From Myxococcales bacterium (GTDB lineage Bacteria > Myxococcota > Myxococcia > Myxococcales > 40CM-4-68-19): a DNA stretch of 63,884 bases. The notes beneath the pieces were generated by a model, which saw nothing but the letters and a program-made list of their open reading frames with translations, ran no database searches and had not been told where the DNA came from. Made by a program: the position numbers and the translations under genes. Positions 1,122-16,710 of this stretch are shown piece by piece; position 1 is the first letter of the stretch; each line of letters begins with the position of its first letter. The stretch covers positions 1 through 63,884 of the forward strand of contig DASQBG010000223.1 in the NCBI GenBank assembly GCA_035635335.1. The letters are read 5' to 3'.

Positions 1122-1197
1122 TGGAGGCACCGGCCGGATTCGAACCGGCGAATGCGGGATTTGCAGTCCCGTGCCTTACCAACTTGGCGACGGTGCC
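1122..1197 (-). tRNA. tRNA-Cys (anticodon GCA), CCA encoded
   Basis: The reverse complement reads GGCACCGTCGCCAAGTTGGTAAGGCACGGGACTGCAAATCCCGCATTCGCCGGTTCGAATCCGGCCGGTGCCTCCA. It has a 7-bp acceptor stem (GGCACCG/CGGTGCC), an anticodon stem CGGGA/TCCCG with loop CTGCAAA, a T-arm GCCGG-TTCGAAT-CCGGC, and a 3' TCCA. Confidence 0.95.
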
Positions 1198-1539
1198 GTG
1201 CCTGGAGGGCCCGCAGGTATCGCGGAGCCCGACCGGCGTCAAGGTCCGCCGGTCCGCCGGGCAACCAAACGCGCCACCCGGCCCTTCGGCCCGACCGCCC
1301 AGCCGGCCAGCCCCCACCAGGAAAGCGCGTTCATCGAGCCAGGTGCCCGCCCGTCCCGCTCGCCCAGGCGGTCTGCTCGTCGACGGCTACCACGGCGCGC
1401 AGATCGGCCGTCACACCGGAGCGTTGCTCGACCATCTCCGGCGCGGTGACCCGCTGGACCGGTCGCCATGAAGCACACCCGGGGACGAAGCGCAGGGCGA
1501 CGGCGGCGGCGCCGGCGATGCGCAGGGCAGCTCTGGCGT

Positions 1540-2628
1540 TCACGCGCGCGGCGCCGGCGGCCCGCGCTTGGGCACCACCAGCCCTCGCGAGAGCCGGCGC
1601 AGTACCCGGCGCAGCTGGCGCTTCTTGTACCGGGGGTGCGCGTTGATGCCGCTCTCGTTCGCGCGCGCGGTGTCGGCGTCCACGAGCTGCAGCTCCACCA
1701 TGCAGAAGGCGATGCGGCTGTCGGCGGTGTCCACCGCGCGCTCCGGGAGCCGGACCGGCAGGTCGACCACGAAGTTCAGCACCTGGTAGTTGTCGCCGCT
1801 GAACTCGTTCGCCGGCGGCGCGTTGCCCTCGCGCCGATCGAGATCCTCCAGTTGCAGGCCTGCCTGCAGCTCGGGGGCGAGCTTGCGCAGGCTGGGGGTC
1901 TCGCGCACCAGGCGCCGGAAGCTGAACAGCGTATTCTGCGTCTGCCCGGGCACCACGAAGTTGAAGGGCACCAGCACGTCGCACAGCCGCACCAGGATCG
2001 GGAGCACGTCGTCCCGGTGCGCGGCGACGACGCGGTAGCGCACCCGATCGTAGATCTGGGCCGCCAGCGTCTCCTTCTTCGCGAGGAGCTTGGTGATCAG
2101 GCTGTGGCGCGTCTTCACGCTGCCGGCCGCGGACAGGATCGGCATGCCCGCCCGCCGCAGCTGGGCAATGGCGTGATCGACGCGCCCGGTGACGAGCTGC
2201 GCCAGCTCGTCCTCGCTCACCCGCGCCCGGTGCAGCAGGCCGCGCGCCTCGACGTGGTGCACCACGTGCATCACCTTGAGCACCAGGCAGGCGATGCGGC
2301 GCAGGCGCTGCGGCTCTCGCGCCCCGGAGGCGAGGAGGAACAGGTCCTGCACCTCGCGCGGCCGCGCCACCTCCTCGGCCACGCGGTACCGGAAGCTGGT
2401 GCGCAGGTAGTCGACTGCCTCGTCCAGGATGCGCTGCACGCGCGCGCGGTCGAAGGGATCGTCCGGCTCGAACAGGCACAGCCGCAGGTAGTGGTCCACC
2501 TCCTCCTTGGTCTGGAAGTGGAGCCTGCGCCAGTCGATGACCGAGCCGCCGCGCAGGATGACCCGCATCCGTTCCAGGTCGCCCAGCGACCAGGACTCGG
2601 GGACGGGCAGCGGCGGACGGACGATCAC
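1540..2628 (-). CDS. RelA/SpoT-fold (RSH-like) nucleotidyltransferase-domain protein of an uncharacterised myxobacterial family. Last gene of the Glt/Nfs-like operon.
   Basis: 362-aa ORF lying 16 nt downstream of 2645..3136. Its motif series resembles the alarmone-synthetase fold. VKTRHSLITKLLAKK...IYDRVRYRVV matches R-x-K ... D-x-x-R. SGDNYQVLNFVVDLPVRL matches G-Y-x-S-x-H. MVELQLVD...NAHPRYKKRQ matches E-I-Q-I-R-T ... H-x-x-YK. Assignment is from motif memory only. Confidence 0.65.
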   Translation of the reverse strand: MIVRPPLPVPESWSLGDLERMRVILRGGSVIDWRRLHFQTKEEVDHYLRLCLFEPDDPFDRARVQRILDEAVDYLRTSFRYRVAEEVARPREVQDLFLLASGAREPQRLRRIACLVLKVMHVVHHVEARGLLHRARVSEDELAQLVTGRVDHAIAQLRRAGMPILSAAGSVKTRHSLITKLLAKKETLAAQIYDRVRYRVVAAHRDDVLPILVRLCDVLVPFNFVVPGQTQNTLFSFRRLVRETPSLRKLAPELQAGLQLEDLDRREGNAPPANEFSGDNYQVLNFVVDLPVRLPERAVDTADSRIAFCMVELQLVDADTARANESGINAHPRYKKRQLRRVLRRLSRGLVVPKRGPPAPRA

Positions 2629-2644
2629 CGCCGCCGAGACTACC

Positions 2645-3136
2645 TCAGAGCGCGCAGCGAAGGGACGGGAGCACGGCGAGCCCCATGCCGGAGCGCACCG
2701 CGACGGCGTCGACCTCGAGCCCGATCGCGAACCGCTTCACGAACGGCTGGAAGAGGAGCTGCGCGCCGGCGAATCCCGCCGGCCCGGAGCCGCTCCGCGT
2801 CGCGGCTGCCCAGCCCGCGCCGACGCGGCCCCACAACATCAGCTTGCCGTCCCCATCCAGCTGGAACAGCCGCGCGCGAGCGGCCAGCCCTGCGGCGACC
2901 CGCGACTGGTCGCCCGGGGATCGCAGCGGCGCCTGGTCCAGCGCTCCCGAGAGCCATGCCTCCGCCGCGAGGCGGTCGGTGAGACCGACACCCACCCCGA
3001 GCCGCACCTCCGGCCCGACGCCGGCGCCCAGGTTGCGGAAGAGCACCTGCGGCCCGGCTTGCATCTCCACCCACGGGCCGCCCTGCGAGACCGGCGACGG
3101 CGGCGCGGCCAGCAAGGCCGCGATCAGCGCGATCAT
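2645..3136 (-). CDS. Small outer-membrane beta-barrel-like protein (GltH/NfsH position)
   Basis: 163 aa with a hydrophobic N-terminal signal (MIALIAALLAAPPSP). It has alternating Gly/hydrophobic strands (RLGVGVGL, LMLWGRVGAGWAA, FAIGLEVDAVAV). The start lies 5 nt after the stop of 3141..5084. Confidence 0.6.
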   Translation of the reverse strand: MIALIAALLAAPPSPVSQGGPWVEMQAGPQVLFRNLGAGVGPEVRLGVGVGLTDRLAAEAWLSGALDQAPLRSPGDQSRVAAGLAARARLFQLDGDGKLMLWGRVGAGWAAATRSGSGPAGFAGAQLLFQPFVKRFAIGLEVDAVAVRSGMGLAVLPSLRCAL

Positions 3137-3140
3137 GCTC

Positions 3141-5084
3141 CTACCCTCCCGGCGTGAAGATGAAGGGGTAGGTGACGAAGACCTCGCCGCCTCCCTTCGG
3201 GATGGGGAACCGCCAGGTCTTGATCTTCGACGCCACGCACTGCTCGACCGTGTGGTCCCGCATCGTGCTCTCCTGCGTGTGCGCCTCGGTCACCGTGCCG
3301 CTCTGGTCGATGGTCCAAGCGCTCACCAGCTTCCCGGCGAGGTTCGGCTTGGTGTTCAGCTGCGTCTCGTAGCAGGTGCGGATCTGTGCGCGGTGCTCGT
3401 GCACGACCTTGCGGATCAGCTCGGGATCGATGGAGCCGGTCACCTGCGGCCGCCCGGGGCCCAGGCCGATGTCCGCGTCCGACTTGCCGCGCAGGCCGCC
3501 CTTGCCGTCGCCGTAGCTCGCCAGGCCTCCGCCGATGCCGTTGGTCCCGATGCGGGCGAGGCCCAGGCCGGAGCCGTCGCCGCCGCCACCTGTGCCGCCC
3601 AGCGACTTCAGGCCCATGCCGCCGCCATGCGCCTCGCCCACCTTTGGCCCGGTGAGGTGGCCCATGGCGTCGCGGGTGCCCTTCTCCAGGGCGACGCCGA
3701 ACACGTCGCTCGCGCCCTTCCCCATCCCGAGTGCCTTGAGCAAGCCGGTGTTGGCGACGATGGCGCGCTCGTCCCGGGCGCGCTCGGCGCGGCCGTCGCG
3801 GCGCGGCGCGCTCTTGCTGCCCGCCTCGCCCTCCTGGCCGCTATGCCGCGCGACCGCCTTGCCCGGGTCCTTGCGCCCCTGCGCCTTGGACGTCTGTTGC
3901 GGCAGCGCCATCGGATCCGGCTTCTTGGGCGAGGCGCGAACCACCAGCGGGCGGGGCCGGATCACCTCCGGGTCGCCGCTGACCTTCGAGGTGGGCACGC
4001 TGCCCGCGAGCACCTTCATGCCGAGGATGAGCAGCAGCGCGGCGATCGAGGCCCCCAGCATGCCTCGCCAGTCGGTCGGCTCCGCCGAGACGCGCGCGGC
4101 CGTCTGCACCCGGCGGACGCGCAGCGACAGGGTGCCGGAACCGAGCACCGCGACGCCCTTCTGCGGGAGCGGCAGGATGAGCCCGTGGGTGTCGGCCTGG
4201 CTGCGGCCCCGCACGAGCAGCTCAGGCCCGCCCAGGGAGCGGCCTTCCTCGACGAGCGTGAGCGAGAGCGGCCGCGGCGCGCAGACCGTCCACCCGCTCG
4301 CGTCGCAGCGCACCACCGGGGACCGGAGGATGCCTTCCAGCAGGGCGTCGCAGCCGGGCGCGGTACCGGCCACCAGCTCCTCGCCCGGAGCGAGCTGCCA
4401 GACGGACAGGCGGGTCCGGCCCCAGAACAGCTCGGCCTCGACGCACTCGCCGCCCTGAACGGCCTGCTCGGGGAGCAGCGGCAGCCCGCGCAGCGGAAGC
4501 ACCGGGGCGGGCGCCGGCTCCGGAGGTGGAACGGCGACCAGCGGCTGCACCGCGGCGGGCTGCGGCGCGGGCTCGGGCACGGGCTCCGGGAGGTCCAGGT
4601 CCGAGGCCGGCAGCTCCGGGATGGCGGCATGGATGCCGCGATCGCTGCGGGCCTCGGTCCCGCGCGGCAGCGGCTCGTCGCGCACCACCGCGAGGGCGGG
4701 CGGATGGGCGTGCGAGCTCTCCGGCTCCCAATCCGCTTCGCCCTCGATGAGCTGCAAGCGCGGACGCTTCTCGGGAACCGGCCCGGGAGCGGAGGCGCGC
4801 AGCTCGACCATGACACGCAGATCGCCGACCGAGATCAGGTCGCCGTGCCGGAGCGGGGCGGCGATGATCGGCTGCCCGTTCAGGTACAGCGGGGCCGGTC
4901 CAACCGCCCGAAGCACCCCCCCCGCCGCACCGCAATCGATGACCGCGTGGCTGGGGACGATCCCGCTGCCGGCCAGGACCAGGTCGCAAGAGCCGCTGCC
5001 GATGCGGATCTGCTCCGAGCGGAAGAGCCGGGACAGCTTCAGCTTGCCGCCCTCATAGACCTTCAGGTGGATCGAGATGGCCAT
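3141..5084 (-). CDS. FHA-domain / single-TM / TonB_C-like (AgmX-PglI type C-terminal domain) protein; GltG/NfsG-like
   Basis: 647 aa. The N-terminus is FHA-like (IRIGSGSCDLVL, HAVIDC, LYLNGQPI, LRHGDLISVGDLRVMV). There is one TM (MLGASIAALLLILGMKVLAG) and a long P/G/A-rich linker. The C-terminus reads GSIDPELIRKVVHEHRAQIRTCYE...GEVFVTYPFIFTPGG, which is TonB-C-like. Confidence 0.8.
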   Translation of the reverse strand: MAISIHLKVYEGGKLKLSRLFRSEQIRIGSGSCDLVLAGSGIVPSHAVIDCGAAGGVLRAVGPAPLYLNGQPIIAAPLRHGDLISVGDLRVMVELRASAPGPVPEKRPRLQLIEGEADWEPESSHAHPPALAVVRDEPLPRGTEARSDRGIHAAIPELPASDLDLPEPVPEPAPQPAAVQPLVAVPPPEPAPAPVLPLRGLPLLPEQAVQGGECVEAELFWGRTRLSVWQLAPGEELVAGTAPGCDALLEGILRSPVVRCDASGWTVCAPRPLSLTLVEEGRSLGGPELLVRGRSQADTHGLILPLPQKGVAVLGSGTLSLRVRRVQTAARVSAEPTDWRGMLGASIAALLLILGMKVLAGSVPTSKVSGDPEVIRPRPLVVRASPKKPDPMALPQQTSKAQGRKDPGKAVARHSGQEGEAGSKSAPRRDGRAERARDERAIVANTGLLKALGMGKGASDVFGVALEKGTRDAMGHLTGPKVGEAHGGGMGLKSLGGTGGGGDGSGLGLARIGTNGIGGGLASYGDGKGGLRGKSDADIGLGPGRPQVTGSIDPELIRKVVHEHRAQIRTCYETQLNTKPNLAGKLVSAWTIDQSGTVTEAHTQESTMRDHTVEQCVASKIKTWRFPIPKGGGEVFVTYPFIFTPGG

Positions 5085-5112
5085 GTCCCTGAGTCGCTCC
5101 GAGGAGTCGTCG

Positions 5113-5403
5113 CTACTCGCCGCGCGCCGCCCCCGACAGCGCGCGATCGATGAAGCTGCGCCGCATGCGCAGCAGGCTTCCCTCGGCGACCCGGCGCGGC
5201 GCCTGCACCAGCTCGCCGTCGGGCCGGGTGATGTCGCCGCGGATGTCGTCCTCTCCGAAATGGATGACGGTGCGGCGCGGCCGGGCGGCCGGCTGGTCGG
5301 TCCTCTGCTGCGCGGGCGCGGCCCTCACCGCCTCGTCCGCCGCCGCGGCGGAGGACACCGCGGCCGCGAGCACCACCCCCCAGAACTTCCGTGGCATCGC
5401 CAC
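5113..5403 (-). CDS. Small secreted/anchored protein (GltF/NfsF position)
   Basis: 96 aa with signal/anchor MAMPRKFWGVVLAAAVSSAAAA, followed by VIHFGEDDIRGDITRPDGELV. It sits 19 nt after the upstream gene and 28 nt before the next one. The assignment is positional only. Confidence 0.55.
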   Translation of the reverse strand: MAMPRKFWGVVLAAAVSSAAAADEAVRAAPAQQRTDQPAARPRRTVIHFGEDDIRGDITRPDGELVQAPRRVAEGSLLRMRRSFIDRALSGAARGE

Positions 5404-5422
5404 CCTCCCGCCCTCCCTTCCC

Positions 5423-6547
5423 CTACTGCACGACCGATGCCTGAGCGCGCGTTCTCAGTGTTTCCTCGCAGCGCTGCACCAAGGCGTGGATCGGATGCCC
5501 CGCCGGCGGCGCATTGACCGACAGCCGTAGGAAAACCTTTGCCTCGGCAAGCGCCGTCTTTGCATCGCCTTCGAGCTCCTTGACGCGCGCCAGCTCCAGG
5601 TGTGGCTCCGGCCAGCCCGGCGCCCGCTTCGCCGCCAGGAGCAGCTGTTCCTCGGCTTGCGCCTTCTGCCCTTGCGCGGCCAGGACCGCCCCGAGCGCGA
5701 GCCGGACCGCCGCCGCCTCCGGCTCCAGCTCGGCCGCCCGCGAGAGCTGCTCCAACGCCTCGGCGGCCAGCCCGCGCTCGGCCAGCGCGCGGCCGAGCGC
5801 GAGGGCGGCTCGGGCGGAGTCCTCGTCCGCGTCCACCGCCGCTCGCGCGGCAGCCAGCTCCGCGGCGGGATCGCCCGCGGCGCGCGCGATTTCGGCCTGC
5901 AGCAAGAGCGGCTCCGCGTCGTCCGGCTCGGCCTTGGCGGCTCGCGCGGCGAGCAGCTTCGCGACCCCCATGCTCCGTTGCGCGAGGTGCGCGCGCGCAA
6001 GCACGCAGAGCGCGCCCGCATCTTCCGGATCGCGCACCAGCGCCGATCGCGCGGCGGCCTGGGCAGCCACCGGATCCCGCAGCGCCAGCGCCACCTGCGC
6101 TTGCAGGACGAACGGGGCCGCGTCCTCCGGGAGCGCGGCGCGGGCCAGGGCGACCGAGGCCCGCGCGGCCTCGGCGTCGCCTCGATCGAGAGCGAGAGAG
6201 GCGGCTCGCGCGGCCGCGGTGAAGCGCAGCTCCGGGAAATCCGGCGCGGCGGCCGCGGCGAGGTACGCCGCTTCCGCGTGCTCGAGGCTCGCCGCGCGAT
6301 CGAGCGCGATCGCGTAGTCGAGCAGCGCGGGAGCGGAGCGCGGCGAGGCCTCCGCGGCCCGCTTGAACCGGGCCACCAGGTCCGGCGCGAGATCCAGCTT
6401 GCGCGCGCTGGCGGACGCGAGGATCGCGTCGTCGAGCGCCCGCCGGGCGTGCTCACCGTCTGCCGGCGGCGGCGGCGCGGGCGCCTGCGCCCGGGCGACT
6501 TGAGCCCAGCCGGCGAGCAGCGCCACCCCGATCGTCAGGCCCCTCAT
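5423..6547 (-). CDS. Secreted TPR-repeat protein (GltE/NfsE-like)
   Basis: Track ORF 5423..7603 is over-extended. The ATG at 6547 overlaps the upstream stop (ATGA) and gives signal peptide MRGLTIGVALLAGWAQVARAQ, followed by Ala/Leu-rich TPR-like repeats. Confidence 0.7.
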   Translation of the reverse strand: MRGLTIGVALLAGWAQVARAQAPAPPPPADGEHARRALDDAILASASARKLDLAPDLVARFKRAAEASPRSAPALLDYAIALDRAASLEHAEAAYLAAAAAPDFPELRFTAAARAASLALDRGDAEAARASVALARAALPEDAAPFVLQAQVALALRDPVAAQAAARSALVRDPEDAGALCVLARAHLAQRSMGVAKLLAARAAKAEPDDAEPLLLQAEIARAAGDPAAELAAARAAVDADEDSARAALALGRALAERGLAAEALEQLSRAAELEPEAAAVRLALGAVLAAQGQKAQAEEQLLLAAKRAPGWPEPHLELARVKELEGDAKTALAEAKVFLRLSVNAPPAGHPIHALVQRCEETLRTRAQASVVQ

Positions 6548-9500
6548 CGGTCCCTCCCGGACGTCCCGCCAATAATCTGTGCAGGCGAGACTGCCTTTGA
6601 CGTCCCGTCGGACTTCGACCCGGGCGCAATCCCGGACGGTGAGCTGCCGCGCTCGGGCCCGGCCGGCCGTCCGTCTGCCGTGACCAGCTCCGGGACCTGG
6701 CTGATCGGCATCCGCGCGACGGCCAGCTCCGCGCGGGGTTGGGGTTTTGTGCCCAGCTTTTCCAGGAGCGATCCGGCCCGCGCCACGCACGGGCCGGTGA
6801 CGCCCAGCTCGCGCGATCTGGCGTCGGCGCCGGCCAGCGTCTCCCGGGCTTCGGCGAGCAGGGGTCCGGCCTTTTCCTGCAGGGCGTCGCGGTAGAGCTT
6901 GCGCTCGTCCGCGGACAGCCCGCCCGGCGCCGGGCTGGTCGCGATCGCATGCGCGAGCAGCATCTGCGCCTCGCCGAGCTGCGCCAGCGCGCACACGGCA
7001 GGCCCGGCCTGCCGCATCGCGACCGTCTCCTCCGCCCGCTTCTTCATTTGCTGGAGCAAGGCGATCTTGCGGTTCAGCGTGCGCGCCAGCGGCGGGTGGA
7101 TCTGCTGCTTCTTGAAGTCCTCGAAAGTGGGAAGCCCCAGGGCGAAGTGCGCCTCGGCCGCGGCTGCGCTCGCCTCGGGCGGCAATGCCGCGCGTCCGTT
7201 CGCCGAGAGACCCCGCCAGACCGTTTCCAGCTGGCGCCACGCCCAACTCGCGTTCCCGGTCTCTCGCGCGGCGGTGAACAGCCGCGCCGACTCGCGCCAG
7301 CTGGACATCTGCAGCGCCGGGTTGCCGCGCGCGGATCGGGCCAGATCGGCCAGCTCCCGTGCGGCACGGGCCGGATCGCCCGCCCTGGCGCGGAGCAGGT
7401 TGAGCGCGAACACCTGCTCGTCGCGGTCCGCCGCCCTGGGCCACTGCTGGAGCGCGTCCTTGCGGTCCTGGAGCGCCTTGGCGAGCTCCCCGCGCGCCTC
7501 GCGCAGCACCGCCGCGTCGTGCAGGGCGGTCTGCGCCTTCGCCTCGTCGTACAACGGCTCCGGCTCGCGCCTGTGGGATTTGGAGGGATGGGCGCGGCGC
7601 CACCTGCGCGCTTCCTGCTCCCGTTTATAGCCGGCGAAATACCGCTCGAGCAGGGCCGCCGCGTCGGCGAGATCTCCCACCGCCGCGTGGTCCGCCGCCG
7701 AGGCGAGCAGCGCACGAGGCACCAGCGCCGAGCCGGGCAGCTCCTTCCACAGCCGCGCGCGCGCGGCGAGCGCTGCGTCCACCTGGCTGGCCCGGGACAG
7801 TGCCGCGGCGGCGCCGAAGATCGCTTTGTCCGTCTGGGCTCCCCGGGGGTGCTCGTCGACGAACGCCAGCAGCGCGCCGGCCTTGGGTGCATCGCCCTCG
7901 ACCCCGTCCGCCATCGCGTAGGCGCTCTGCTCCTCCACGCGCTTCAAATCGGCCTGCAGCGTCCCATGGGCGATGAGGCGCTTGTCGGCGAGAAAGCGAA
8001 GCGCCCAGTCATGCACCGCTGGGTAGTCCTTGCGGAGGTTGGCGATGTCGAGCACCAGGTTCGCCGCGAATTCGGCCAGCTCGTGCTCGGGATGGCCCAG
8101 CGCGATCCAGGAGAGGTGCTTCTGCGCATCGTCCAGCCTGCCCGAGACGTACTCCAAGCGGCCCAGCTTGAAGGCGACCTCCACCGCGCGCTGCCCGTCA
8201 GGCAATGCCTCCAGGAAGAGCCGGCAGGAGCTCGCGAGCAGCTCCTCGTCGGCGCTCAGCGGGTGCTGCGCATTGTGCGCGTCCTTCGGCTTCCCGTCGC
8301 CCGCGACTTCCGCCCGCGCCACCACCGCGCCCCAGGCCGCCCGCTGCAACCACCGCCCCGGCCTCCTTCCGGCCCTCCGCGCCGCGAGGTCCTGGCGCAC
8401 CACCTGTTCGTAGAGAGACGCGGCCCGCGCCTTCTCCCCCAGCCCGTAGAGCAGCTCGGCGTCGAAGAAGCGCAGCTCGTAGGCGTCAGGCGCGTCCGGG
8501 AACAGCGCCAGGTAATCTGCATAGAGCGCCTTGGTGGCGGCGTACGTGTCCTCGAGGCGAGTCTTCTTCGCCTCGTTGTGGAGCTGGACGGCGAGGTTGC
8601 GCAGCGTCTCCTCGGCGTGCTGCTCCGCTTCGTCGATTGCCTCGCGGCCGTCGGCCTCCGCGCCCGCGGCTTTCTTCACCCGCTGGAAGGTCTCCACCAG
8701 CGCCTGCGCCTCGCGTAGCAGGTCCTTCCGCTTCCCTCCGCGCGCGGCGATCATCAGCAAGCGCGTCTGATCGAGCGCGGCGCCCGGGCTCCCGCCGTGG
8801 ATCTCCAACAACTGGCGGTGGATCAGCTGTGCCTCGGGGTCGCGGCCCTGGTCGAAGAGCAGCTTGCCGTACTGCTCGAGCATCTTCTGGCCCGCCTGCG
8901 CGCCGAACTTCTCCCGGAACTCCTCTCGTGCGCTCGAAGGCGCAGAGGCCCGCGCGTAGACGAGCACGTAGTCCCGGCGCGCCTCGCGCGCGAGCTGCAC
9001 CTTGTTCGCCTCGCTCCCGGACGGGTGCGCGGCGTCGCCGCCGAGGCTGACCGCCACCACCTTGTGCAAGAGCTTCAACGCATCGGCGAACGCGTTCTGG
9101 TTGAAGCGGCACCAGGCGGCCTTGTAGAGGGCGTACGGATACACGTCGTCGGTCTGGATCTCGGCCGCCGCGCGGTACTCCGCGAGCGCCTCGGCGAGCT
9201 TCGCCTTTTCGAAGAGGTGCTCCCCGACGAACACGTGCGCGGCGGGCGCCCAGGCAGACCTGGGGAAGCGCCGCGTCAGCTCGCGCGCGGCAGCGACCGC
9301 CTCCTCGTCCTTGCCGGAGTCCTGCAGGGCGTCGGCGAGGAAGAAGAGCGCCTCGTCCAGCTTGGGGGCGCGGGGGAACTTGCGGAGGAGCTCGCGGTAC
9401 AGCGCGACTCCCTCGGACCGGGCCACCTGCGCCGCCGCCTTGTCGCGCTCCGCGGCGGCCGGATCCTGGTCGGCTTCCGCGGCCGCGCGGATGGTCAGCG

Positions 9501-9753
9501 CCAGCCCGCGGGCGCGCAGCAGATTGGCGAGCCGCGCGGTCACCTCGGCCTGCTCGGCTTCGCTCCCGCCCAGGGCGAGCAGGCTGCGCAGCGCACGCTC
9601 CTGCTCCTGCTCCTTCGCCTGCACGGCCTGGTCGGCGCCGCGGTGGAGGAGAGCGGAATCCCGCCCCGGCTGGGCGAGCGCCTGCGCGCCCTGCCTGGCC
9701 GCGGACGGGACCGCGGCGACGGCGGCGGCGAGGGCAATGGCGAGCACGGTCAT
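6544..9753 (-). CDS. Large TPR-repeat protein, about 1069 aa (GltD/AgmU/NfsD-like)
   Basis: Track ORF 6544..10794 is over-extended. The ATG at 9753 gives MTVLAIALAAAVAAVPSAARQ (signal), followed by many TPR-like units (YPYALYKAAWCRFNQNAFADALKLL and others). Confidence 0.75.
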   Translation of the reverse strand: MTVLAIALAAAVAAVPSAARQGAQALAQPGRDSALLHRGADQAVQAKEQEQERALRSLLALGGSEAEQAEVTARLANLLRARGLALTIRAAAEADQDPAAAERDKAAAQVARSEGVALYRELLRKFPRAPKLDEALFFLADALQDSGKDEEAVAAARELTRRFPRSAWAPAAHVFVGEHLFEKAKLAEALAEYRAAAEIQTDDVYPYALYKAAWCRFNQNAFADALKLLHKVVAVSLGGDAAHPSGSEANKVQLAREARRDYVLVYARASAPSSAREEFREKFGAQAGQKMLEQYGKLLFDQGRDPEAQLIHRQLLEIHGGSPGAALDQTRLLMIAARGGKRKDLLREAQALVETFQRVKKAAGAEADGREAIDEAEQHAEETLRNLAVQLHNEAKKTRLEDTYAATKALYADYLALFPDAPDAYELRFFDAELLYGLGEKARAASLYEQVVRQDLAARRAGRRPGRWLQRAAWGAVVARAEVAGDGKPKDAHNAQHPLSADEELLASSCRLFLEALPDGQRAVEVAFKLGRLEYVSGRLDDAQKHLSWIALGHPEHELAEFAANLVLDIANLRKDYPAVHDWALRFLADKRLIAHGTLQADLKRVEEQSAYAMADGVEGDAPKAGALLAFVDEHPRGAQTDKAIFGAAAALSRASQVDAALAARARLWKELPGSALVPRALLASAADHAAVGDLADAAALLERYFAGYKREQEARRWRRAHPSKSHRREPEPLYDEAKAQTALHDAAVLREARGELAKALQDRKDALQQWPRAADRDEQVFALNLLRARAGDPARAARELADLARSARGNPALQMSSWRESARLFTAARETGNASWAWRQLETVWRGLSANGRAALPPEASAAAAEAHFALGLPTFEDFKKQQIHPPLARTLNRKIALLQQMKKRAEETVAMRQAGPAVCALAQLGEAQMLLAHAIATSPAPGGLSADERKLYRDALQEKAGPLLAEARETLAGADARSRELGVTGPCVARAGSLLEKLGTKPQPRAELAVARMPISQVPELVTADGRPAGPERGSSPSGIAPGSKSDGTSKAVSPAQIIGGTSGRDR

Positions 9754-9938
9754 GGCGGGCGCACGACTCCTCTCCCGGTGCGGGCACGGTGCAACCTTCG
9801 GGCCTTTTTCGCGCGGCGCTCCCGCCTTCGGTGGCACGCGGCGCAGCCAGCGGATGGGCCGCTGTGACCGCGCGCACGGGGAAATTCGCTTCCCTGGGAA
9901 TCGGGGTGCCCAGACGGCGACGACGAATGGAATTCGCG

Positions 9939-11603
9939 TCAGCGACCGGCGGGCGAAGGCTCGGCGGAGGCGGCGGCGGCCGGAGCGGCAGGGACTTGCG
10001 CCTGCTGCACCGGAGCGGGCGTGGCGGGACGCACGCAGCGGTCGCCGAGGTGGAACCGGTAGCTGCCCAGCTCGTCGCGCCAGTACTCGCCCTGGAACGG
10101 CCACAGCTCCTCGTCGTCGTCCACCTGCGTGGGCGGGCGTCGTTGCGGGCCCGGCGACGCGGGGGACGGTGCCGCGGCCAGCTCTTTCTCGCGGCCGGCG
10201 ATCTCGAAGTCGAGGCGCAGCGCTTGGGCGAGCAGCTCGCGCAATTCGCCCCGCTCGTCCGCCAGGGCGCTCCGCGCGCGATCGCCGGTGCGCTGCAGCA
10301 GATCGACGCGCGCGCTGCGCACTTGCGGCATTACCGCCGAGGCGAGGGCCGAGCCGCGGAACGCGGGCCCGCGCCGATCCATCGAGTCCAGCTCGGCTTC
10401 CATCGCGGCCACCTGCCTGAGGGACAGCGACAGCTCCGGAGTGGAGAGGAGCCGCGCCACCTCGGGCCGGGCCGGCTCGGGCAGCCGGCCCAGCAGCGCC
10501 TGCGCCTGGGAAGCGAGCGCCTCCACGGCAGCCGGCGCGGTGGGCATGAGCTGCAGCGCCTGCGCGAGCCCGTCGTGCAGGGGACGATAGCGCGCCTCGA
10601 ATTCTTGCAGCGCGCGGCGCGCGTCGGGGTAGCGGCAGTTCTCGTACAGCACCAGCGCCTTGAGCACGTGCGATTCGGGGAAATAGCGGCCCTGGAAGAA
10701 CGGGGCGTGCAGCGTGAGGAGGTTCCCGAGCGCCTTCTCGTCCTCGCCGCGACGGAAATGCGACCAGCTCGACTCGAACAGCGCATCGAGCCACTGCGGC
10801 GCGCCCCTCGAGACCCGCGCGTAGAGGGTCTGCGCGCGCGCGTCGTCGCCGCGGGCGTAGGCGAGCCGCGCCAGCTGCAAGAGCGCATTCTCGCGCCGTT
10901 CCACCGCCGCGGCCCCCAGCGGCGTGACGCGCGCAACCGCCTCGAAGTCCTGCTCCGCCGCGGCGGTGTTCCCCGCGGCGAGCGCGGCCAGGGCGCCTAC
11001 CTCGCGCGCCTCGGCTTCGGCCGGGTCGCCAGGCTGGACCTGTCCCGCGATCTGCCGTGCGCGCTCCAACTCCGCCCGGGCGAGACGCTGGACCGCGGTC
11101 ACGCGCGGCGGCGCCGGCTCCTCGGGCAATGCGGCACGCACCGGCGCTCCCGCCGCCGCCGGCGTCAGCGCTGTTCCGGCGGCCGCCATGCCGGCGAACG
11201 CAGAGCCCTCGTCGAGCGGAGCCAGCACCAGCGCTTGCTCGAGATGCGCCCGGGCGACGCGCACCGCGAGCGCCGCCTCGAGCCGCGCGGGAGGCAGGCG
11301 CATTGCCAGGAAGAGGGCGAGGCCGCCTTGCGCGGCCCTCCGCTGCATCTCTCGCGAGGCCGCGCGCGCGGCCTCGCCCTCGCTCGCGCCGAGGACGGAG
11401 AGCGCGACCGTGCCCGTCTCGGGCAGGCCGGCCCGGTCCAGGGTCGCGACGAGCGCGCGGACCTGCGCCCCGGCGCCATCGGCGTCGAGCTTGCCTGCTT
11501 GCAGCGCGGCAAAGGCCCGCGCCGCCTCTTCCTCGGGCTCGGCCGAGCCGCGCGCGGCGAACGCCGCGAAGGCAGCCACCGTCACCACCAGCCCGGGCCT
11601 CAT
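9939..11603 (-). CDS. Periplasmic TPR protein (GltC/NfsC-like)
   Basis: The ATG at 11603 lies 4 nt after the stop of the upstream barrel gene and gives MRPGLVVTVAAFAAFAARGSA (signal). TPR-like repeats follow. The C-terminal motif is ELWPFQGEYWRDELGSYRFHLGDRC. Confidence 0.7.
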   Translation of the reverse strand: MRPGLVVTVAAFAAFAARGSAEPEEEAARAFAALQAGKLDADGAGAQVRALVATLDRAGLPETGTVALSVLGASEGEAARAASREMQRRAAQGGLALFLAMRLPPARLEAALAVRVARAHLEQALVLAPLDEGSAFAGMAAAGTALTPAAAGAPVRAALPEEPAPPRVTAVQRLARAELERARQIAGQVQPGDPAEAEAREVGALAALAAGNTAAAEQDFEAVARVTPLGAAAVERRENALLQLARLAYARGDDARAQTLYARVSRGAPQWLDALFESSWSHFRRGEDEKALGNLLTLHAPFFQGRYFPESHVLKALVLYENCRYPDARRALQEFEARYRPLHDGLAQALQLMPTAPAAVEALASQAQALLGRLPEPARPEVARLLSTPELSLSLRQVAAMEAELDSMDRRGPAFRGSALASAVMPQVRSARVDLLQRTGDRARSALADERGELRELLAQALRLDFEIAGREKELAAAPSPASPGPQRRPPTQVDDDEELWPFQGEYWRDELGSYRFHLGDRCVRPATPAPVQQAQVPAAPAAAASAEPSPAGR

Positions 11604-11607
11604 CGCC

Positions 11608-12444
11608 TCACCGCCCGCCGAACAGCCATGCCACGCCCATTTCCAAGGACAGCTTCCGCTCCCACTCGGCATGCCCGCGGACGCGCGTGCTGTACAGCAC
11701 CTGGCTGGCGCCCAGCCGCAGCAAGAAATTGTTGGAGAAGAAGACGCGCTCCCCGACGGCCACGCGGCCTCCCAGCGCCCAGCGCGAGGCGGTGCCGGAC
11801 ACCGCGTCGGGCGCGATGCGCTCGAGCAGGATTTCCGGCCCCGCCGAGACGTACGCATCGAAGTGGATCGTCTTCTCGCCCGCGAGCGACAGCTTGCCGT
11901 AGATGGGCGCCCAGCCCACCTCCACCCCGGTCATCATGCGGATGTCCCCAGGCGTAGACCGCAACCGTCCCGCCTCGGGGCTGGTGCAGGAGGAGTCGGT
12001 GCAGACGTCGATCGGCGCCGAGAGGAGGGATGCGCCCCCGAGAGCATGAGCGGAGAGCGACCAGCGCTCGTCGAGGTGCTGCTCGAGGCGGACGCCTAGC
12101 AGGACGCTGCGGAAGAACGGGTCGCCGATGGAGAACTGGAACATCGGCTGCGCCTCCAGGCGTCCTCCGATGCGGAACAGCTGCGCGGTCACCGGCGGCA
12201 GCGACGCCGGCGTTCCGCGCATCGCGATGCGCACGGCCGGATCGTTGGCGAGCGCGGGCAGCTCGTTCATCGCAACCGCTTCGGTCGGCGCCTGGCGGGT
12301 AGCCGCGGCCGGCTCGGACGCGGCGGTCGGGGTCGCGGTCGTGGTCGTGGTCGCGTTTGAGGTCGTGTTCGAGGTCGAGGTCGCGCTCGACGTCGTCGCC
12401 CCGGCGAGCAGCGCGAGCGCCGCGCAGATGGGCGCGGCGATCAT
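11608..12444 (-). CDS. Outer-membrane beta-barrel protein, GltA/GltB (NfsA/NfsB) family
   Basis: The ATG at 12444 overlaps the upstream stop (ATGA). The signal is MIAAPICAALALLAGA, followed by a T/S-rich tract. Shared family motifs are APIYGKLSLAGEKTIHFDAYVSAG and GGRVAVGERVFFSNNFLLRLG, with C-terminal LSLEMGVAWLFGGR. It is a paralogue of 12441..13091. Confidence 0.75.
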   Translation of the reverse strand: MIAAPICAALALLAGATTSSATSTSNTTSNATTTTTATPTAASEPAAATRQAPTEAVAMNELPALANDPAVRIAMRGTPASLPPVTAQLFRIGGRLEAQPMFQFSIGDPFFRSVLLGVRLEQHLDERWSLSAHALGGASLLSAPIDVCTDSSCTSPEAGRLRSTPGDIRMMTGVEVGWAPIYGKLSLAGEKTIHFDAYVSAGPEILLERIAPDAVSGTASRWALGGRVAVGERVFFSNNFLLRLGASQVLYSTRVRGHAEWERKLSLEMGVAWLFGGR

Positions 12445-13091
12445 CGGTCGCCCCTGATTCCCGGCAGGTACCAGGAGAGCCCCAGCTGCACCGTCCAGAA
12501 GCCCATCGCGTGGGTCTGCCGCTGACCGTCGACAAGCACGTGCTCGGCGTAGACCTCGCCGCCCACCCGCGCGGTGAGCGCGAGGTTCTCGCCCAGGAAG
12601 AGCCGCTGGCCGATCCCGCCGGTGAGCATGGGCCGGACGCCCCTGCCCGCCTCCGTCTCGGTGAGGACGCCGCCCAGGCCGGCGTCCAGGAAAGTCTCGA
12701 AGTGCACCAGCGCGTCGCCGGGCAGCGCCACCTTTCCGTAGATGGGCGCGATCGACGCCATGCCCGCGAGCGATGCGCGCTGGTGCGACTCGATGATGCG
12801 CGCGTGCAGCTCGCGCTTGGCGATGACCAGCTCCTGCGTCGCCGAGGTGCCCAACCCGCCGGCGTCCAGGCCCACGGAGAGGCCCTCTCGCAGGTGGTAC
12901 ATGCCGCGCAGGCCGCCTCCCCACCGCTGCAGGTACGGATCGGCGATGCTGATCGCGCCGTAGGCCCACAGCTCGACCCGCTTCGCCTGCCGCAAGGGCC
13001 GCTTCTGGACGGCGCTGATCTCGTCCGACTCGCCGGCGCGGGCGGAGGTAGCCAGCAGGCAGGCGGCGAGGAACAGCGGCAACAGGCGCAT
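12441..13091 (-). CDS. Outer-membrane beta-barrel protein, GltA/GltB (NfsA/NfsB) family
   Basis: The ATG at 13091 gives MRLLPLFLAACLLATSARA (signal). Motifs parallel the neighbouring gene: APIYGKVALPGDALVHFETFLDAG, GGIGQRLFLGENLALTARVG and C-terminal WTVQLGLSWYLPG. The track start at 13265 adds an R/P-rich extension and looks spurious. Confidence 0.75.
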   Translation of the reverse strand: MRLLPLFLAACLLATSARAGESDEISAVQKRPLRQAKRVELWAYGAISIADPYLQRWGGGLRGMYHLREGLSVGLDAGGLGTSATQELVIAKRELHARIIESHQRASLAGMASIAPIYGKVALPGDALVHFETFLDAGLGGVLTETEAGRGVRPMLTGGIGQRLFLGENLALTARVGGEVYAEHVLVDGQRQTHAMGFWTVQLGLSWYLPGIRGDR

Positions 13092-13614: not shown

Positions 13615-14076
13615 ATGCGCCGCGGACCGCTCTTCATCGCGCTGCTCCTGGCCGGCTCGTGCCGCGGCGGGGCCTCGCCGGTCCAGGGGAAGGACATGCC
13701 GCAGCCGGCCGTCCGGTTCGAGACATCGCGCGGTCCGTGGGTCGTTCAGGTCGAGGTGGCGCGCACCGACGAGCAGCGGGCGCGCGGCCTGATGTTCCGC
13801 CGCGATCTGCCGCGCGACCACGGGATGCTGTTCCTCTTCGACGAGACGTCCGAGCATCCGTTCTGGATGCGCAACACGCTCATCGCGCTGGACATGATCT
13901 TCCTGGGCGACGACCGGCGGGTGGTGGGAGTGGTGAGCAACGCCGAGCCGCTCACCGAAACGCCGCGCACGGTGGGCAAACCGTCGCGCTACGTGGTCGA
14001 GGTCTCCGGCGGCGAGGCGGCGGCCCATGCCGTCGTTCCCGGCACGCCCGCCGCGTTCCTCGGCATCGAGGAATGA
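13615..14076 (+). CDS. DUF192-family secreted protein
   Basis: 153 aa with signal/lipobox MRRGPLFIALLLAGSC. DUF192 hallmarks are present: ARTDEQRARGLMFR, MLFLFD, FWMRNTLIALDMIFL and YVVEV. Confidence 0.85.
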   Translation: MRRGPLFIALLLAGSCRGGASPVQGKDMPQPAVRFETSRGPWVVQVEVARTDEQRARGLMFRRDLPRDHGMLFLFDETSEHPFWMRNTLIALDMIFLGDDRRVVGVVSNAEPLTETPRTVGKPSRYVVEVSGGEAAAHAVVPGTPAAFLGIEE

Positions 14077-14087
14077 AGCGGCCCGAG

Positions 14088-14477
14088 CTACGTCCTCTGC
14101 AGCAGGCCCTGCATCACGTACCGGCCGAGGCTCTCCTCCATCATGCGCTCGACCAGCGACTCGAACTCGCTGCGCTGCTCGTCGGAGGCGAACACGAAGC
14201 GGATGCCCATCCCGGGCTCCGCGCCCGCGCCGGGCTGCTCGGCCTCGAGGATCCAGGTGACCTCGCCGTCGAGCGTGACGGGTTCCGAGAGCGCCGGCAC
14301 CGCGAGCGCGAAGAGGAAGCGCGTCCCCACCGGCAGCGGGCGCGACGTCTTGATGAAGGTCCCGCCTTTGGAGATGTTCTTCGTGTAGTCCGCGAAGAAC
14401 GCGTTCATGCGCTCGTAATCGACCCGCAGCCGGATCGGCCCGCGAGGCGCGGCGCGGCGGTCGGAGGGCGAGGTCAT
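14088..14477 (-). CDS. PilZ-domain protein (putative c-di-GMP receptor)
   Basis: It carries RRAAPRGPIRLRV (RxxxR) and DYTKNISKGGTFI (D-x-S-x-x-G). This is the stand-alone PilZ type common in myxobacteria. The start is taken at ATG 14477; an alternative GTG lies at 14507. Confidence 0.8.
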   Translation of the reverse strand: MTSPSDRRAAPRGPIRLRVDYERMNAFFADYTKNISKGGTFIKTSRPLPVGTRFLFALAVPALSEPVTLDGEVTWILEAEQPGAGAEPGMGIRFVFASDEQRSEFESLVERMMEESLGRYVMQGLLQRT

Positions 14478-14559: not shown

Positions 14560-16710
14560 GTGGCCCTCCTGGCGGCCGTGTCGGTGGTGTGCGCTTTCCT
14601 GCCCCTGGCGGACCACCTGGGCTACGAGCTGGCCGAGGTAGTCGCGCTGTGCGCGGGCCTGTTCGGCGCCGCGCCCGGCGTCGCCGCCGCCCGCGCGGAG
14701 GCTTCTCGCCCTGACGCCGATGCGGCGCGCGCGACCGCGATCGCCGTTCTCCTGGGAACGTCGGCGCTGGTGGTGCCGGTCGCGCTCATCCTGCTGAACG
14801 CGCTGCGCCGGCCGGCGTGCGACCCGGCCGCGGGGCTCGTGCTGTACCTCGCCGTCGCGGTCCCCTCGGGCGTGCTCGCCGCGACGCTGGGCGCCGCCTG
14901 CGGATTCGCAGCGCCGCGGCGCGCCGGATGGATGGTTGCGGCGGTGTTCACGGCGACGCTGCTGGTGTCGCTCTGGCCCGTCGCGCGCGGCCCGCAGATC
15001 TTCGCCTTCCACCACCTGGGAGGATGGTTTCCCGGGCCCATCTACGACGAGGGCATCCGCCCGCCCCGGGCGCTGTGGATCTTCCGCGCCGCGACGATCC
15101 TCTACGCCGGAGCCTCCGCGGGGCTTGCGCTGTTGTCAGGCCCGGGTCGCCGGAGCGCGGCCGGCCTCGCGCTGGTCGCCGCCTGCGGTTTGCCCGCCGC
15201 CTGGCTCTCGCTCCACGCGGAGCGGTTCCACTGGAAGGCCAGCGGCGCCGGCCTCGACGCGGAGCTGGGCGGTTCGCTGCAGACCGAGCACGTGGTGCTG
15301 CACTTCCCGCGGGAGAAGCGCGACGACGAGAGCCGGCTGCTCGCGCGCGACGCCGAGGTCTCCTGGCGCGCGGTCCGGGAGTTCGCGGGACTGCCCCTGG
15401 CCGCGGAGCCGGTGCACGTCTTCCTCTACCGGACTCCCGAGGAGAAGCGGCGCCTGATCGGGGCGGCGGAGACGAGCTTCACCAAGCCTTGGCTGCGCCA
15501 GATCCACACCAACGACGCGCCCGCGCCGCACCCCATCCTGCGGCACGAGCTGGCGCATGCCGCGTTCGCCGGGATCGCGCCGGGACCGTTCGGCGTGCCG
15601 GGCGGGCCCTTCCCGGAGATGGCGCTCGTCGAAGGAGCAGCGGTGGCCGCGGACTGGCCGCCAGGCGAGTTCACGGTGCACGAGCAGGCGCGCGCGCTGC
15701 GCGACCTGAAGCTCCTCCCGGATCTGCCGAGCCTGTTCGCGACAGGGCGCTTCTATGGCGAATCGGGAGCGCGCGCCTATACCGCCGCCGGCTCGGCGAT
15801 CCGGTTCCTCTGGCAGTCGCGCGGGCCCGCTGCCTTCCGCGAGGCTTACGCGCACGGGATTGCGGACCTCGACGGGCTCGCCAGCACGTACGGGGCTTTC
15901 CTCGACACCGTGCCCTCGCACCCGCGCGCCGTCGCCCTGGCGCAGCAGCGGTTCGCTGCTCCGGGGATCGTCCACCGTCCGTGTCCTCACGAGGCTGCCG
16001 AGCTGGAGCGCGAAGCGCAGCGGGCGACGGATCCGAGCCTCGCGGTCCGGCTCTGGTCCCGCTGCGTGCACCTGGAGCCCGACGATCCGCGCCTGCTCCT
16101 GCAGCTCTGGCGCGCGCAGCTGCGCGCCGCCGACCTGGCCGGCGCCTCGGAAACCGGGCGCCGCGCCCTGGCGCACCCCAAGCTGTCGCAACCGCTGCGC
16201 GCGGCGCTCCTCACCGAGTCCGGGGACGCGGCGTGGCGCACCGGCGACGCGGGCGCGGCGCGCGCCCGCTACGAGGAGGCGCGCGCGCTCGTGCAGCCGG
16301 AGCCGCAGGAGCGGGCGCTGGTCGCCCGGCTGTGGGCCCTGGACGATGCCGGTCGCTGGCCCGCGCTGCGCCGGCTGCTGGCGGACGGGGACACCGGGCC
16401 GGAAACGATGCGCCTGCTGCGGGACCTCGATTCGCGCGAGAGGGGGGAAGGTCTCCCTCCCTACCTCGTCGCCAAGCAGCAGCAGAACCGCGCCGAGTGG
16501 GCGGAGTGCGCCCGCTCCGCGCGCGAGGCCCTCTCCCGCAAGCTGCCCGCCGCTCTGTTCCGGCACGAGGCCCTCCGGATGCTCGGCCTCGCCTCCTGGC
16601 ACCTCGGGGACACCGCCTCCGCGCGCGACGCCTTTTCCCTCCTCGGCCAGGACGCCCCTCCCGGCCGCTCCCTCGAATCCTCCCGCTGGCTCCAACTCCT
16701 CACGCCTTGA
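14560..16710 (+). CDS. Polytopic membrane protein with an HExxH (gluzincin-like) domain and a TPR-like C-terminus
   Basis: 716 aa from a GTG start. The N-terminal ~230 aa form about 6 hydrophobic helices. The central part has ILRHELAHAAF ... ALVEGAAVAADW (HExxH plus a downstream E). The C-terminal ~230 aa are Ala/Leu/Arg-rich helical repeats. Confidence 0.7.
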   Translation: MALLAAVSVVCAFLPLADHLGYELAEVVALCAGLFGAAPGVAAARAEASRPDADAARATAIAVLLGTSALVVPVALILLNALRRPACDPAAGLVLYLAVAVPSGVLAATLGAACGFAAPRRAGWMVAAVFTATLLVSLWPVARGPQIFAFHHLGGWFPGPIYDEGIRPPRALWIFRAATILYAGASAGLALLSGPGRRSAAGLALVAACGLPAAWLSLHAERFHWKASGAGLDAELGGSLQTEHVVLHFPREKRDDESRLLARDAEVSWRAVREFAGLPLAAEPVHVFLYRTPEEKRRLIGAAETSFTKPWLRQIHTNDAPAPHPILRHELAHAAFAGIAPGPFGVPGGPFPEMALVEGAAVAADWPPGEFTVHEQARALRDLKLLPDLPSLFATGRFYGESGARAYTAAGSAIRFLWQSRGPAAFREAYAHGIADLDGLASTYGAFLDTVPSHPRAVALAQQRFAAPGIVHRPCPHEAAELEREAQRATDPSLAVRLWSRCVHLEPDDPRLLLQLWRAQLRAADLAGASETGRRALAHPKLSQPLRAALLTESGDAAWRTGDAGAARARYEEARALVQPEPQERALVARLWALDDAGRWPALRRLLADGDTGPETMRLLRDLDSRERGEGLPPYLVAKQQQNRAEWAECARSAREALSRKLPAALFRHEALRMLGLASWHLGDTASARDAFSLLGQDAPPGRSLESSRWLQLLTP

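Follow-up and report, generated by a model that had tools for sequence, protein, structure and literature searches.

The window analysed here, the 63,884 nucleotides (nt) of contig DASQBG010000223.1 from a Myxococcales bacterium, carries a gene cluster of the Glt/Nfs family, whose reference members are the Agl-Glt gliding machine and the Nfs spore-coat machine of Myxococcus xanthus. Two paralogous outer-membrane beta-barrel genes (A1 and A2) are followed on the minus strand by genes C, D, E, F, G and H and by a ninth gene, hereafter gene 9, and a gltK-type gene diverges from the first barrel. We consider it likely that this locus specifies a minimal gliding transducer of the Glt type, belonging to a Myxococcia lineage that is uncultured and branches deep, with gene 9 as an accessory enzyme. 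The cluster represents a known kind of machine in a compact variant, and the new lead is its class-wide link with a divergent RelA/SpoT-fold enzyme, the product of gene 9. Agl-Glt/Nfs is the model for focal-adhesion gliding and directional surface transport, yet it has been dissected in one organism only.

Gene 9 encodes a divergent RelA/SpoT-fold protein

Gene 9 matched the TIGR04552 family with 342.6 bits (cut-off 125), residues 17-348 aligning with positions 4-352 of the 352-position model, and its product has neither a signal peptide nor a membrane segment. The family comprises about 730 representative clusters at 50% identity, and its members from soil metagenome-assembled genomes (MAGs) share 75-93% identity across more than 100 clusters. 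In the library searched, the literature on TIGR04552 came down to one 2026 preprint, and myxobacteria are not mentioned in the 2011 survey of RelA/SpoT homologues (RSH).

A RelA/SpoT fold had been proposed for gene 9 in the initial annotation of this DNA, and three approaches agreed with this proposal. The AlphaFold (AF2) model, computed from a 50-sequence alignment, reached a predicted local-distance difference test score (pLDDT) of 92 and a predicted template-modelling score (pTM) of 0.89; with a shallow alignment, limited to sequences of 74% identity or more, the pLDDT was 45 only. In a Foldseek search of this model against the PDB, the top 40 matches were all RelP, RelQ or Rel synthetases, with a probability of 1.0 in nearly all, E values down to 1.9e-5 and template-modelling (TM) scores of about 0.5-0.58 on small alarmone synthetases (SAS). 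Last, the TIGR04552 family profile matched only GTP pyrophosphokinases among PDB sequences; the single gene-9 sequence gave spurious designed-repeat matches only.

We then mapped the synthetase motifs by profile alignment to YwaC, S. aureus Rel and E. coli RelA (residues in Table 1). The mapped catalytic positions were 92-100% conserved among 50 diverse TIGR04552 members, and we take the functional roles of these residues to be those established for Rel/SAS enzymes. K118, N232, P291, N324 and D317 are invariant residues specific to the family. Thus, the gene-9 protein has the same core fold as the RelP/RelQ and Rel/RelA synthetases, together with their K..S...K, D....R, Tyr, E.Q and H..YK motifs. 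Unlike them, it is extended at the N-terminus by a helical domain of about 135 residues and has an insert at residues ~220-283. Two further differences speak against a canonical synthetase: other residues take the place of the leading Arg in 'RxK' and of the 'RT' in 'ExQxRT', and the match to Pfam RelA_SpoT (PF04607) stayed below threshold (19.6 bits, cut-off 27), covering residues 171-212 only. Taken together, the modelled fold and the mapped motifs suggest that gene 9 most likely makes or transfers a pyrophosphorylated nucleotide, and that it would be an accessory cytoplasmic enzyme rather than a structural subunit.

Orthologues of gene 9 are linked to glt genes across the Myxococcia

Gene 9 is not an odd add-on to the cluster, as its orthologues are glt-linked across the Myxococcia. 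We scanned one genome per GTDB species with a query alignment of 7 gene-9 sequences, which returned 591 relatives, and analysed the best 80 loci. Those with at least 1.5 kb of upstream sequence (n=77) were taken as informative, and in 74 of them a glt gene lies upstream of the TIGR04552 gene and on the same strand. The linked loci include M. xanthus, wherein the TIGR04552 gene is MXAN_4858, as well as Anaeromyxobacteraceae and Vulgatibacter. A bona fide GltJ (921 bits) is encoded two genes upstream of the TIGR04552 gene in M. xanthus. In Anaeromyxobacteraceae, a giant GltI-like protein and a GltJ-like one directly adjoin it, and the situation in Vulgatibacter is similar. We noticed that the two genes separating gltJ from the TIGR04552 gene in Myxococcaceae are themselves conserved (249 aa and 160 aa, that is, amino acids; L075:8493-9242 and 9388-9870), with occurrences in loci of Corallococcus, Pyxidicoccus and Myxococcus.

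A possibility was that the enzyme encoded by gene 9 has a general role in housekeeping or signalling and, in one class, happens to neighbour glt genes with no functional tie to them. Several observations fit this view and weigh against a dedicated link. Two loci with gene-9 identities of 55-57%, L029 and L053, are not glt-linked, and family members at 33-40% identity (Nannocystaceae, Paraliomyxa and one further lineage) stand alone among unrelated neighbours. The 17-protein structural model of Agl-Glt does without gene 9. Moreover, the 2026 preprint, a transposon-sequencing (Tn-seq) study, refers to an earlier MXAN_4858 insertion for which no overt motility defect was reported. Yet that same preprint describes a glt-like fitness behaviour for MXAN_4858. 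The linkage in the 74 loci also extends across lineages whose gene-9 identity is only 50-60%, and it holds despite a differing neighbour, which is H in the window, GltJ in Anaeromyxobacteraceae, and GltJ plus the two spacer genes in Myxococcaceae. Finally, the orientation of gene 9 is constant, and only 16 nt separate it from H in the window. We regard a chance neighbourhood as rather unlikely on these grounds.

A more specific proposal, which we put forward tentatively, is that TIGR04552 proteins form a previously unrecognised branch of RelA/SpoT-type pyrophosphokinases and act in Myxococcia as a dedicated cytoplasmic partner of Glt, possibly coupling motor or adhesion to physiology through a local nucleotide signal or the modification of a component. 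As it is genetically tractable, MXAN_4858 offers a testable candidate for nucleotide-based control of gliding, outside the 17-protein models. We also considered agmV (MXAN_4864/65), which follows gltH, as the M. xanthus counterpart of gene 9. It was rejected: it has been described as a hypothetical of 1151 aa without similarity, and it is probably not a real gene.

Layout of the locus and gene models

The locus had been described as nine minus-strand genes at 1540-13091, joined by ATGA overlaps or by gaps of at most 30 nt, with one exception. The nine open reading frames (ORFs) hold at these coordinates with no internal stop, and their G+C content at third codon positions (GC3) was 0.875-0.956 vs 0.42-0.58 at second positions (GC2), in a window of about 72% G+C. 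An independent gene caller, trained on the codon usage of the window, returned the same nine coordinates, and public gene calls on near-identical soil-metagenome contigs (JGI 3300012918 and others, ENA ERZ27253147) give the same genes. The spacing was also as described. Overlaps of 4 nt (ATGA) join A1 to A2 and D to E, the remaining gaps are 4, 19, 28, 4 and 16 nt, and the 185 nt between C and D are the sole exception. What had to be revised was the end of the locus at 13091. Indeed, a tenth gene, a divergent GltK/CglC gene on the plus strand, sits just past the first barrel and extends the locus, such that K, the two barrels and C-H all lie at one locus of about 12 kb (Table 1).

Table 1. Features of the Glt-type locus and mapped residues of the gene-9 protein
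Feature	Position	Strand	Description
GltK/CglC-type outer-membrane lipoprotein, 135 aa	13171..13578	+	lipobox-like LAGAGC; divergent from first barrel
GltA/GltB (NfsA/B)-type outer-membrane beta-barrel, copy 1 (A1), 216 aa	12441..13091	-	signal peptide; TIGR04565
GltA/GltB-type barrel, copy 2 (A2), 278 aa	11608..12444	-	TIGR04565; ATGA overlap with copy 1
GltC/NfsC-type periplasmic connector (C), 554 aa	9939..11603	-	signal peptide; gliding_GltC
C-D intergenic region, 185 nt	9754..9938	-	sigma54-like element and palindrome
Large secreted TPR protein in GltD/NfsD position (D), 1069 aa	6544..9753	-	position, size, clade conservation
GltE/NfsE-type TPR protein (E), 374 aa	5423..6547	-	signal peptide, no lipobox Cys; gliding_GltE; Pfam TPR_17, TPR_14
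GltF/CglF-type small periplasmic protein (F), 96 aa	5113..5403	-	gliding_CglF
GltG/NfsG-type inner-membrane transducer (G)	3141..5084	-	cytoplasmic FHA, one transmembrane segment, Pro/Gly-rich periplasmic linker, AgmX/PglI C-terminal domain
GltH/CglE-type small outer-membrane barrel (H), 163 aa	2645..3136	-	gliding_CglE; position conserved across clade
TIGR04552-family protein (gene 9), cytoplasmic, 362 aa	1540..2628	-	divergent RelA/SpoT-synthetase (small alarmone synthetase-like) fold
Gene 9, synthetase motif K..S...K	K172/S176/K180		
Gene 9, synthetase motif D....R	D194/R199		metal-binding Asp
Gene 9, acceptor-stacking Tyr	Y281		
Gene 9, synthetase motif E.Q	E312/Q314		
Gene 9, synthetase motif H..YK	H331/Y334/K335		

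Conserved co-occurrence in relatives had been named as a test of the cluster. The order A1-A2-C-D-E-F-G-H-gene 9 is kept whole in the loci of the window clade that are long enough to show it (gene-9 identity 72-97%). These include L007, L010, L011, L013, L015, L018 and L022, and also L014 and L023, in both of which a mini-GltJ is inserted. Shorter loci of the clade keep the parts that they cover.

Component families, gene by gene

The cluster had been called a Glt/Nfs-type envelope-spanning machine, and the profile searches were in line with this. The best NCBIfam matches were GltC, GltE, CglF, GltG and CglE, and both barrels matched OMP_myx_plus. By these searches, seven of the first eight genes belong to the Glt/Nfs family, and D is placed by position only. 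In the literature, GltK is equivalent to CglC, GltH to CglE and GltF to CglF.

The gltK product matched NCBIfam NF033754 (gliding_CglC) with 61.6 bits (cut-off 60; E 9.2e-17) over positions 6-153 of the 155-position model, and a gltK-type gene was also called on the metagenome contigs L001-L004. In M. xanthus, gltK adjoins gltB-gltA-gltC, and its product aids the insertion of barrels into the outer membrane. Both barrels of the window exceeded the TIGR04565 (OMP_myx_plus) cut-off of 60 bits, the first with 60.2 (E 2.3e-16; GC3 0.945) and the second with 84.1 (E 1e-23). They are mutual paralogues (27% identity, E 2e-10), as the initial annotation had it. We noticed in the second barrel a low-complexity Thr/Ser-rich linker after the signal peptide, at residues ~17-45.

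Residues 175-524 of C aligned with positions 254-620 of gliding_GltC (E 2e-79; 268 bits, equivalog cut-off 450). Its description as a secreted tetratricopeptide repeat (TPR) protein ending in WPFQGEYWRDELGSYRF was kept as regards secretion; the motif lies about 34 residues before the C-terminus, and Pfam found no TPR. The E product matched gliding_GltE over residues 29-372 (E 7.5e-15; 54.8 bits, cut-off 225), F matched gliding_CglF (E 5.1e-17; 61.7 bits, cut-off 90) and H matched gliding_CglE (E 1.2e-6; 28.5 bits, cut-off 70). The GltE, CglF and CglE matches are the best or near-best for their genes, and they come in the expected D-E-F-G-H order. No similarity was detectable between H and the A/B barrels.

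G aligned with gliding_GltG over almost its entire length (E 2.5e-97; 327 bits, cut-off 650; residues 1-647 on positions 1-649 of 650). It had been described as an FHA-TM-TonB_C protein. The FHA domain (Pfam, 25.9 bits, cut-off 20.7) and a single transmembrane (TM) segment (hydrophobic residues 342-360 by hydropathy) were recovered, and the C-terminal domain matched AgmX/PglI (myxo_SS_tail; 117 bits, cut-off 40; E 2.8e-34). Pfam TonB_C was not detected in G, and the C-terminal domain had no sequence match in the PDB; the 'TonB-like' label is taken from the literature. This layout, that is, FHA, TM and a domain resembling the C-terminal domain (CTD) of TonB, is the one published for M. xanthus GltG. 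The best 120 matches listed in a homology search with G were all close MAG relatives, with at least 60% identity.

Two points count against these assignments. First, D had no Glt-specific profile match: even at E up to 10, it gave generic TPR and Tol-Pal YbgF/CpoB-type matches only (69.5 bits), which is why it is assigned by position, size and clade conservation. Second, the Glt equivalog scores of C, E, F, G and H are below the NCBIfam cut-offs, and GltK alone is above. Such scores are expected, since the lineage is distant and the syntenic GltJ orthologues of Anaeromyxobacteraceae likewise fall short (397 vs 450 bits).

In one sub-branch of the clade (L011, L013, L016 and L022), the D and E homologues lie in one frame without a stop, which looks like a GltD-GltE fusion. 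The corresponding ORF spans 1346-1359 aa (for instance L013:3164-7207).

The locus is better described as Glt-type or pre-duplication than as Nfs-type

The initial annotation had stressed that the first eight genes reproduce the nfs operon gene for gene. The A/B-C-D-E-F-G-H order is indeed present, but it is equally that of Glt, and the emphasis on nfs does not hold since GltK is present. According to published descriptions, Nfs comprises eight co-regulated genes and has no paralogues of GltI, GltJ and GltK (Wartel 2013). The cluster differs from such an A-H set: like Nfs it lacks I and J, but it has K in addition, along with a ninth gene. As K scores above its cut-off and Nfs lacks K, the locus is Glt-like in content.

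Lineage placement went in the same direction. In a neighbour-joining tree of gene-9 proteins, built with no support values and rooted on an unlinked distant member (P0324/L088), the window clade is monophyletic and lies outside Anaeromyxobacteraceae, Vulgatibacter and Myxococcaceae. This tree mirrors taxonomy. The glt/nfs duplication has been reported as recent and situated in a terminal branch; a clade placed outside Anaeromyxobacteraceae and Myxococcaceae therefore points to a Glt-type, pre-duplication arrangement. Collectively, these observations mean that the locus is better described as Glt-type or pre-duplication, and not as Nfs-type, Nfs being set apart here by its published description and by gene content. 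A natural minimal version, placed before the duplication in the gene-9 tree, can help to reconstruct the ancestral machine and to ask which of its parts are needed.

Could the cluster nonetheless be an Nfs orthologue, that is, a machine specific to sporulation which wraps the cell in a secreted spore-coat polysaccharide, like M. xanthus nfsA-H? As in nfs, an A-H set without GltI and GltJ stands at a single locus, the 185-nt C-D gap parallels the 214-bp gap between M. xanthus nfsC and nfsD, and the Glt equivalog scores of C-H are below cut-offs, as would be those of a paralogue. However, sub-cut-off scores are also those of the syntenic Anaeromyxobacteraceae GltJ. Besides GltK and the lineage placement, two further facts are at odds with an Nfs orthologue: the Myxococcaceae orthologue of gene 9 is linked to the gltD-J locus, nfs being described as eight genes only, and sister lineages have a mini-GltJ in the cluster. 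We find this explanation improbable.

Comparison with known systems helps to situate the Glt-type arrangement. With M. xanthus Agl-Glt, the window shares homologues of K, A/B, C, E, F, G and H and a TPR protein in the D position, in the same relative order, as well as the layout of G and a TIGR04552 gene at the 3' end of a gltD-type block. Unlike in M. xanthus, the window cluster is at one locus, gltK is divergent, D and E have no lipobox Cys, the TIGR04552 gene directly follows H, GltI and GltJ are missing, and neither the motor nor the CglB adhesin was seen in the window. With NfsA-H, it has in common the single-locus set without I/J, a sizeable C-D gap and a motor presumably encoded elsewhere; it departs from Nfs as described by GltK/CglC, by a ninth, RSH-fold gene and by a lineage outside the glt/nfs duplication branch. 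With the cluster of Anaeromyxobacter, for which two glt gene groups at a single locus were already reported (Luciano 2011), and with the Anaeromyxobacteraceae MAG loci L024, L057 and L083, it shares the single locus, as known from the literature, and the terminal TIGR04552 gene. What sets Anaeromyxobacteraceae apart is that they retain, immediately upstream of the TIGR04552 gene, a giant GltI-like and a full GltJ-like protein; they also have a CxxC mini-protein downstream.

Small ORFs and a tRNA gene downstream of gene 9

Anaeromyxobacteraceae encode, directly after the TIGR04552 gene, this conserved protein of 61-65 aa (L083:11107-11304, L057:11100-11285, L024:11064-11258 and others), with two CxxC pairs (GRCQ[IV]CG...FCxxCAIEYG) and an acidic tail. 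In the window, a 70-aa ORF (1331-1543, minus strand) overlaps the stop of gene 9 by 4 nt. It was considered as a tenth gene of the run or as an antitoxin, and ruled out. Although called on metagenome contigs, it has a GC3 of 0.82, that is, a weak coding signal, and it has no conserved counterpart even in L007, where gene 9 is 97% identical; this ORF is probably not a gene.

The SAS-like fold of gene 9 and these small downstream ORFs might evoke a toxSAS-type toxin or a defence enzyme paired with a small antitoxin, but such a role is highly improbable because PADLOC gave no match, the 70-aa ORF is unconserved and inheritance looks vertical (taxonomy-like tree, stable synteny), unlike that of mobile toxin-antitoxin modules, and gene 9 is itself very highly conserved.

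Further along, a tRNA-Cys(GCA) gene (1122-1197, minus strand) lies directly downstream of gene 9. A tRNA-Cys is found downstream of the cluster in all clade loci, at 0.1-2.9 kb from gene 9, and makes a conserved anchor.

The C-D gap probably holds an internal promoter

The 185-nt gap sits at the gltBAC/gltD boundary, where M. xanthus splits its genes into gltKBAC and gltD-J, such that the two-locus split of M. xanthus corresponds to the C/D break of the window. An element in this gap, AGGCCCGAAGGTTGCA (9790-9805, minus strand), agrees with the sigma54 -24/-12 consensus and lies about 40 nt upstream of the start of D. In six clade loci its GG and TTGCA do not vary, although the intergenic regions as a whole share only 51% identity. 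A point against this site is that the sigma54-like pattern is not enriched across the window (5 matches vs 8.9 expected), and it is thus the phylogenetic footprint that carries the prediction. About 80 nt upstream of the element, we noticed a palindrome (TTCCC-A-GGGAA / GGGAA-N6-TTCCC, ~9879-9900, minus strand), which could be a candidate site for an enhancer-binding protein. Rfam found no RNA in the gap, its only hit being the tRNA, and a simple scan of the minus strand for sigma70 promoters and terminators was uninformative.

The gap thus holds a predicted, probable internal promoter for D-E-F-G-H-gene 9. With a clade-conserved sigma54-like element at this place, three transcription units are probable: gltK, which is divergent; barrel-barrel-C; and D-E-F-G-H-gene 9.

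GltI, GltJ and the motor are not encoded in the window

GltI and GltJ are essential for M. xanthus gliding. The window encodes neither: in tblastn searches with GltJ of M. xanthus, Anaeromyxobacteraceae and Vulgatibacter and with a GltI-like protein of Anaeromyxobacteraceae, the sole match was to the C-terminal domain of G. Neither were MotA_ExbB or ExbD domains found among the non-obvious ORFs of the 63.9-kb window, in keeping with the earlier claim that it has no TolQR/AglRQS-like motor genes. The remaining ORFs look housekeeping (leuS, rib and fab operons, rpsA and others). Both absences speak against a complete gliding transducer at this locus.

The clade itself sheds light on GltJ. Its earliest-branching member encodes, between H and the gene-9 homologue, a 547-aa mini-GltJ (L023:8358-10001) made of a zinc ribbon, a GYF-like domain, a Pro-rich linker and one TM. 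At the same place, another member encodes a mini-GltJ of 220 aa (L014:9336-9998) with a GYF-like domain and one TM. Neither has a TonB-like domain. The window lineage has lost even this mini-GltJ.

A working scheme for the minimal transducer

What the data above show is gene structure, family membership, fold, conservation of motifs and synteny. In the scheme that follows, we infer, rather than observe, assembly, motor coupling, promoter use, the chemistry of gene 9 and the physiological output. By homology with M. xanthus Agl-Glt, GltK would help to insert the two paralogous barrels into the outer membrane, where they would form a platform with the small GltH barrel. GltC would hook this platform to a periplasmic TPR pillar made of D and E, with GltF as a bridge. 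GltG would span the inner membrane, take proton-motive-force work from a TolQR-like AglRQS motor encoded elsewhere, and pass this work to D through its TonB-CTD-like domain. A nucleotide signal made by gene 9 might tune the machine or report on it. In a lineage so reduced, gene 9 may stand in for some of what GltI and GltJ do as cytoplasmic regulators in M. xanthus. The output of the minimal transducer would most likely be surface gliding or the directional transport of a surface polymer.

The logic of such a machine is shared with Tol-Pal and TonB-ExbBD: an inner-membrane G with a TonB-CTD-like domain, a YbgF/CpoB-like TPR protein D, outer-membrane partners and a motor of the TolQR/ExbBD class. 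Unlike these systems, the window has no motor genes at the locus, a cytoplasmic FHA domain in G and a myxobacteria-specific outer-membrane module.

Other genes of the window

A 716-aa protein (14560-16710, plus strand) has a multi-pass membrane N-terminal part, a HELAH-type motif and a TPR-like C-terminal part, with no Pfam or NCBIfam match. Further on, an MFS transporter (17414-18616, minus strand) carries a (TS)n repeat. Two genes next to gltK (14088-14477, minus strand, and 13615-14076, plus strand) encode a member of the myxobacterial TIGR02266 family with a PilZ domain (92 bits) and a DUF192 protein; PilZ proteins bind cyclic di-GMP (c-di-GMP) and are frequent regulators of motility. Finally, a 372-aa protein (23414-24532, minus strand) combines DUF4388 with an MshE-related c-di-GMP-binding motif (49 bits), and its gene adjoins those of a 658-aa TPR membrane protein and phoH.

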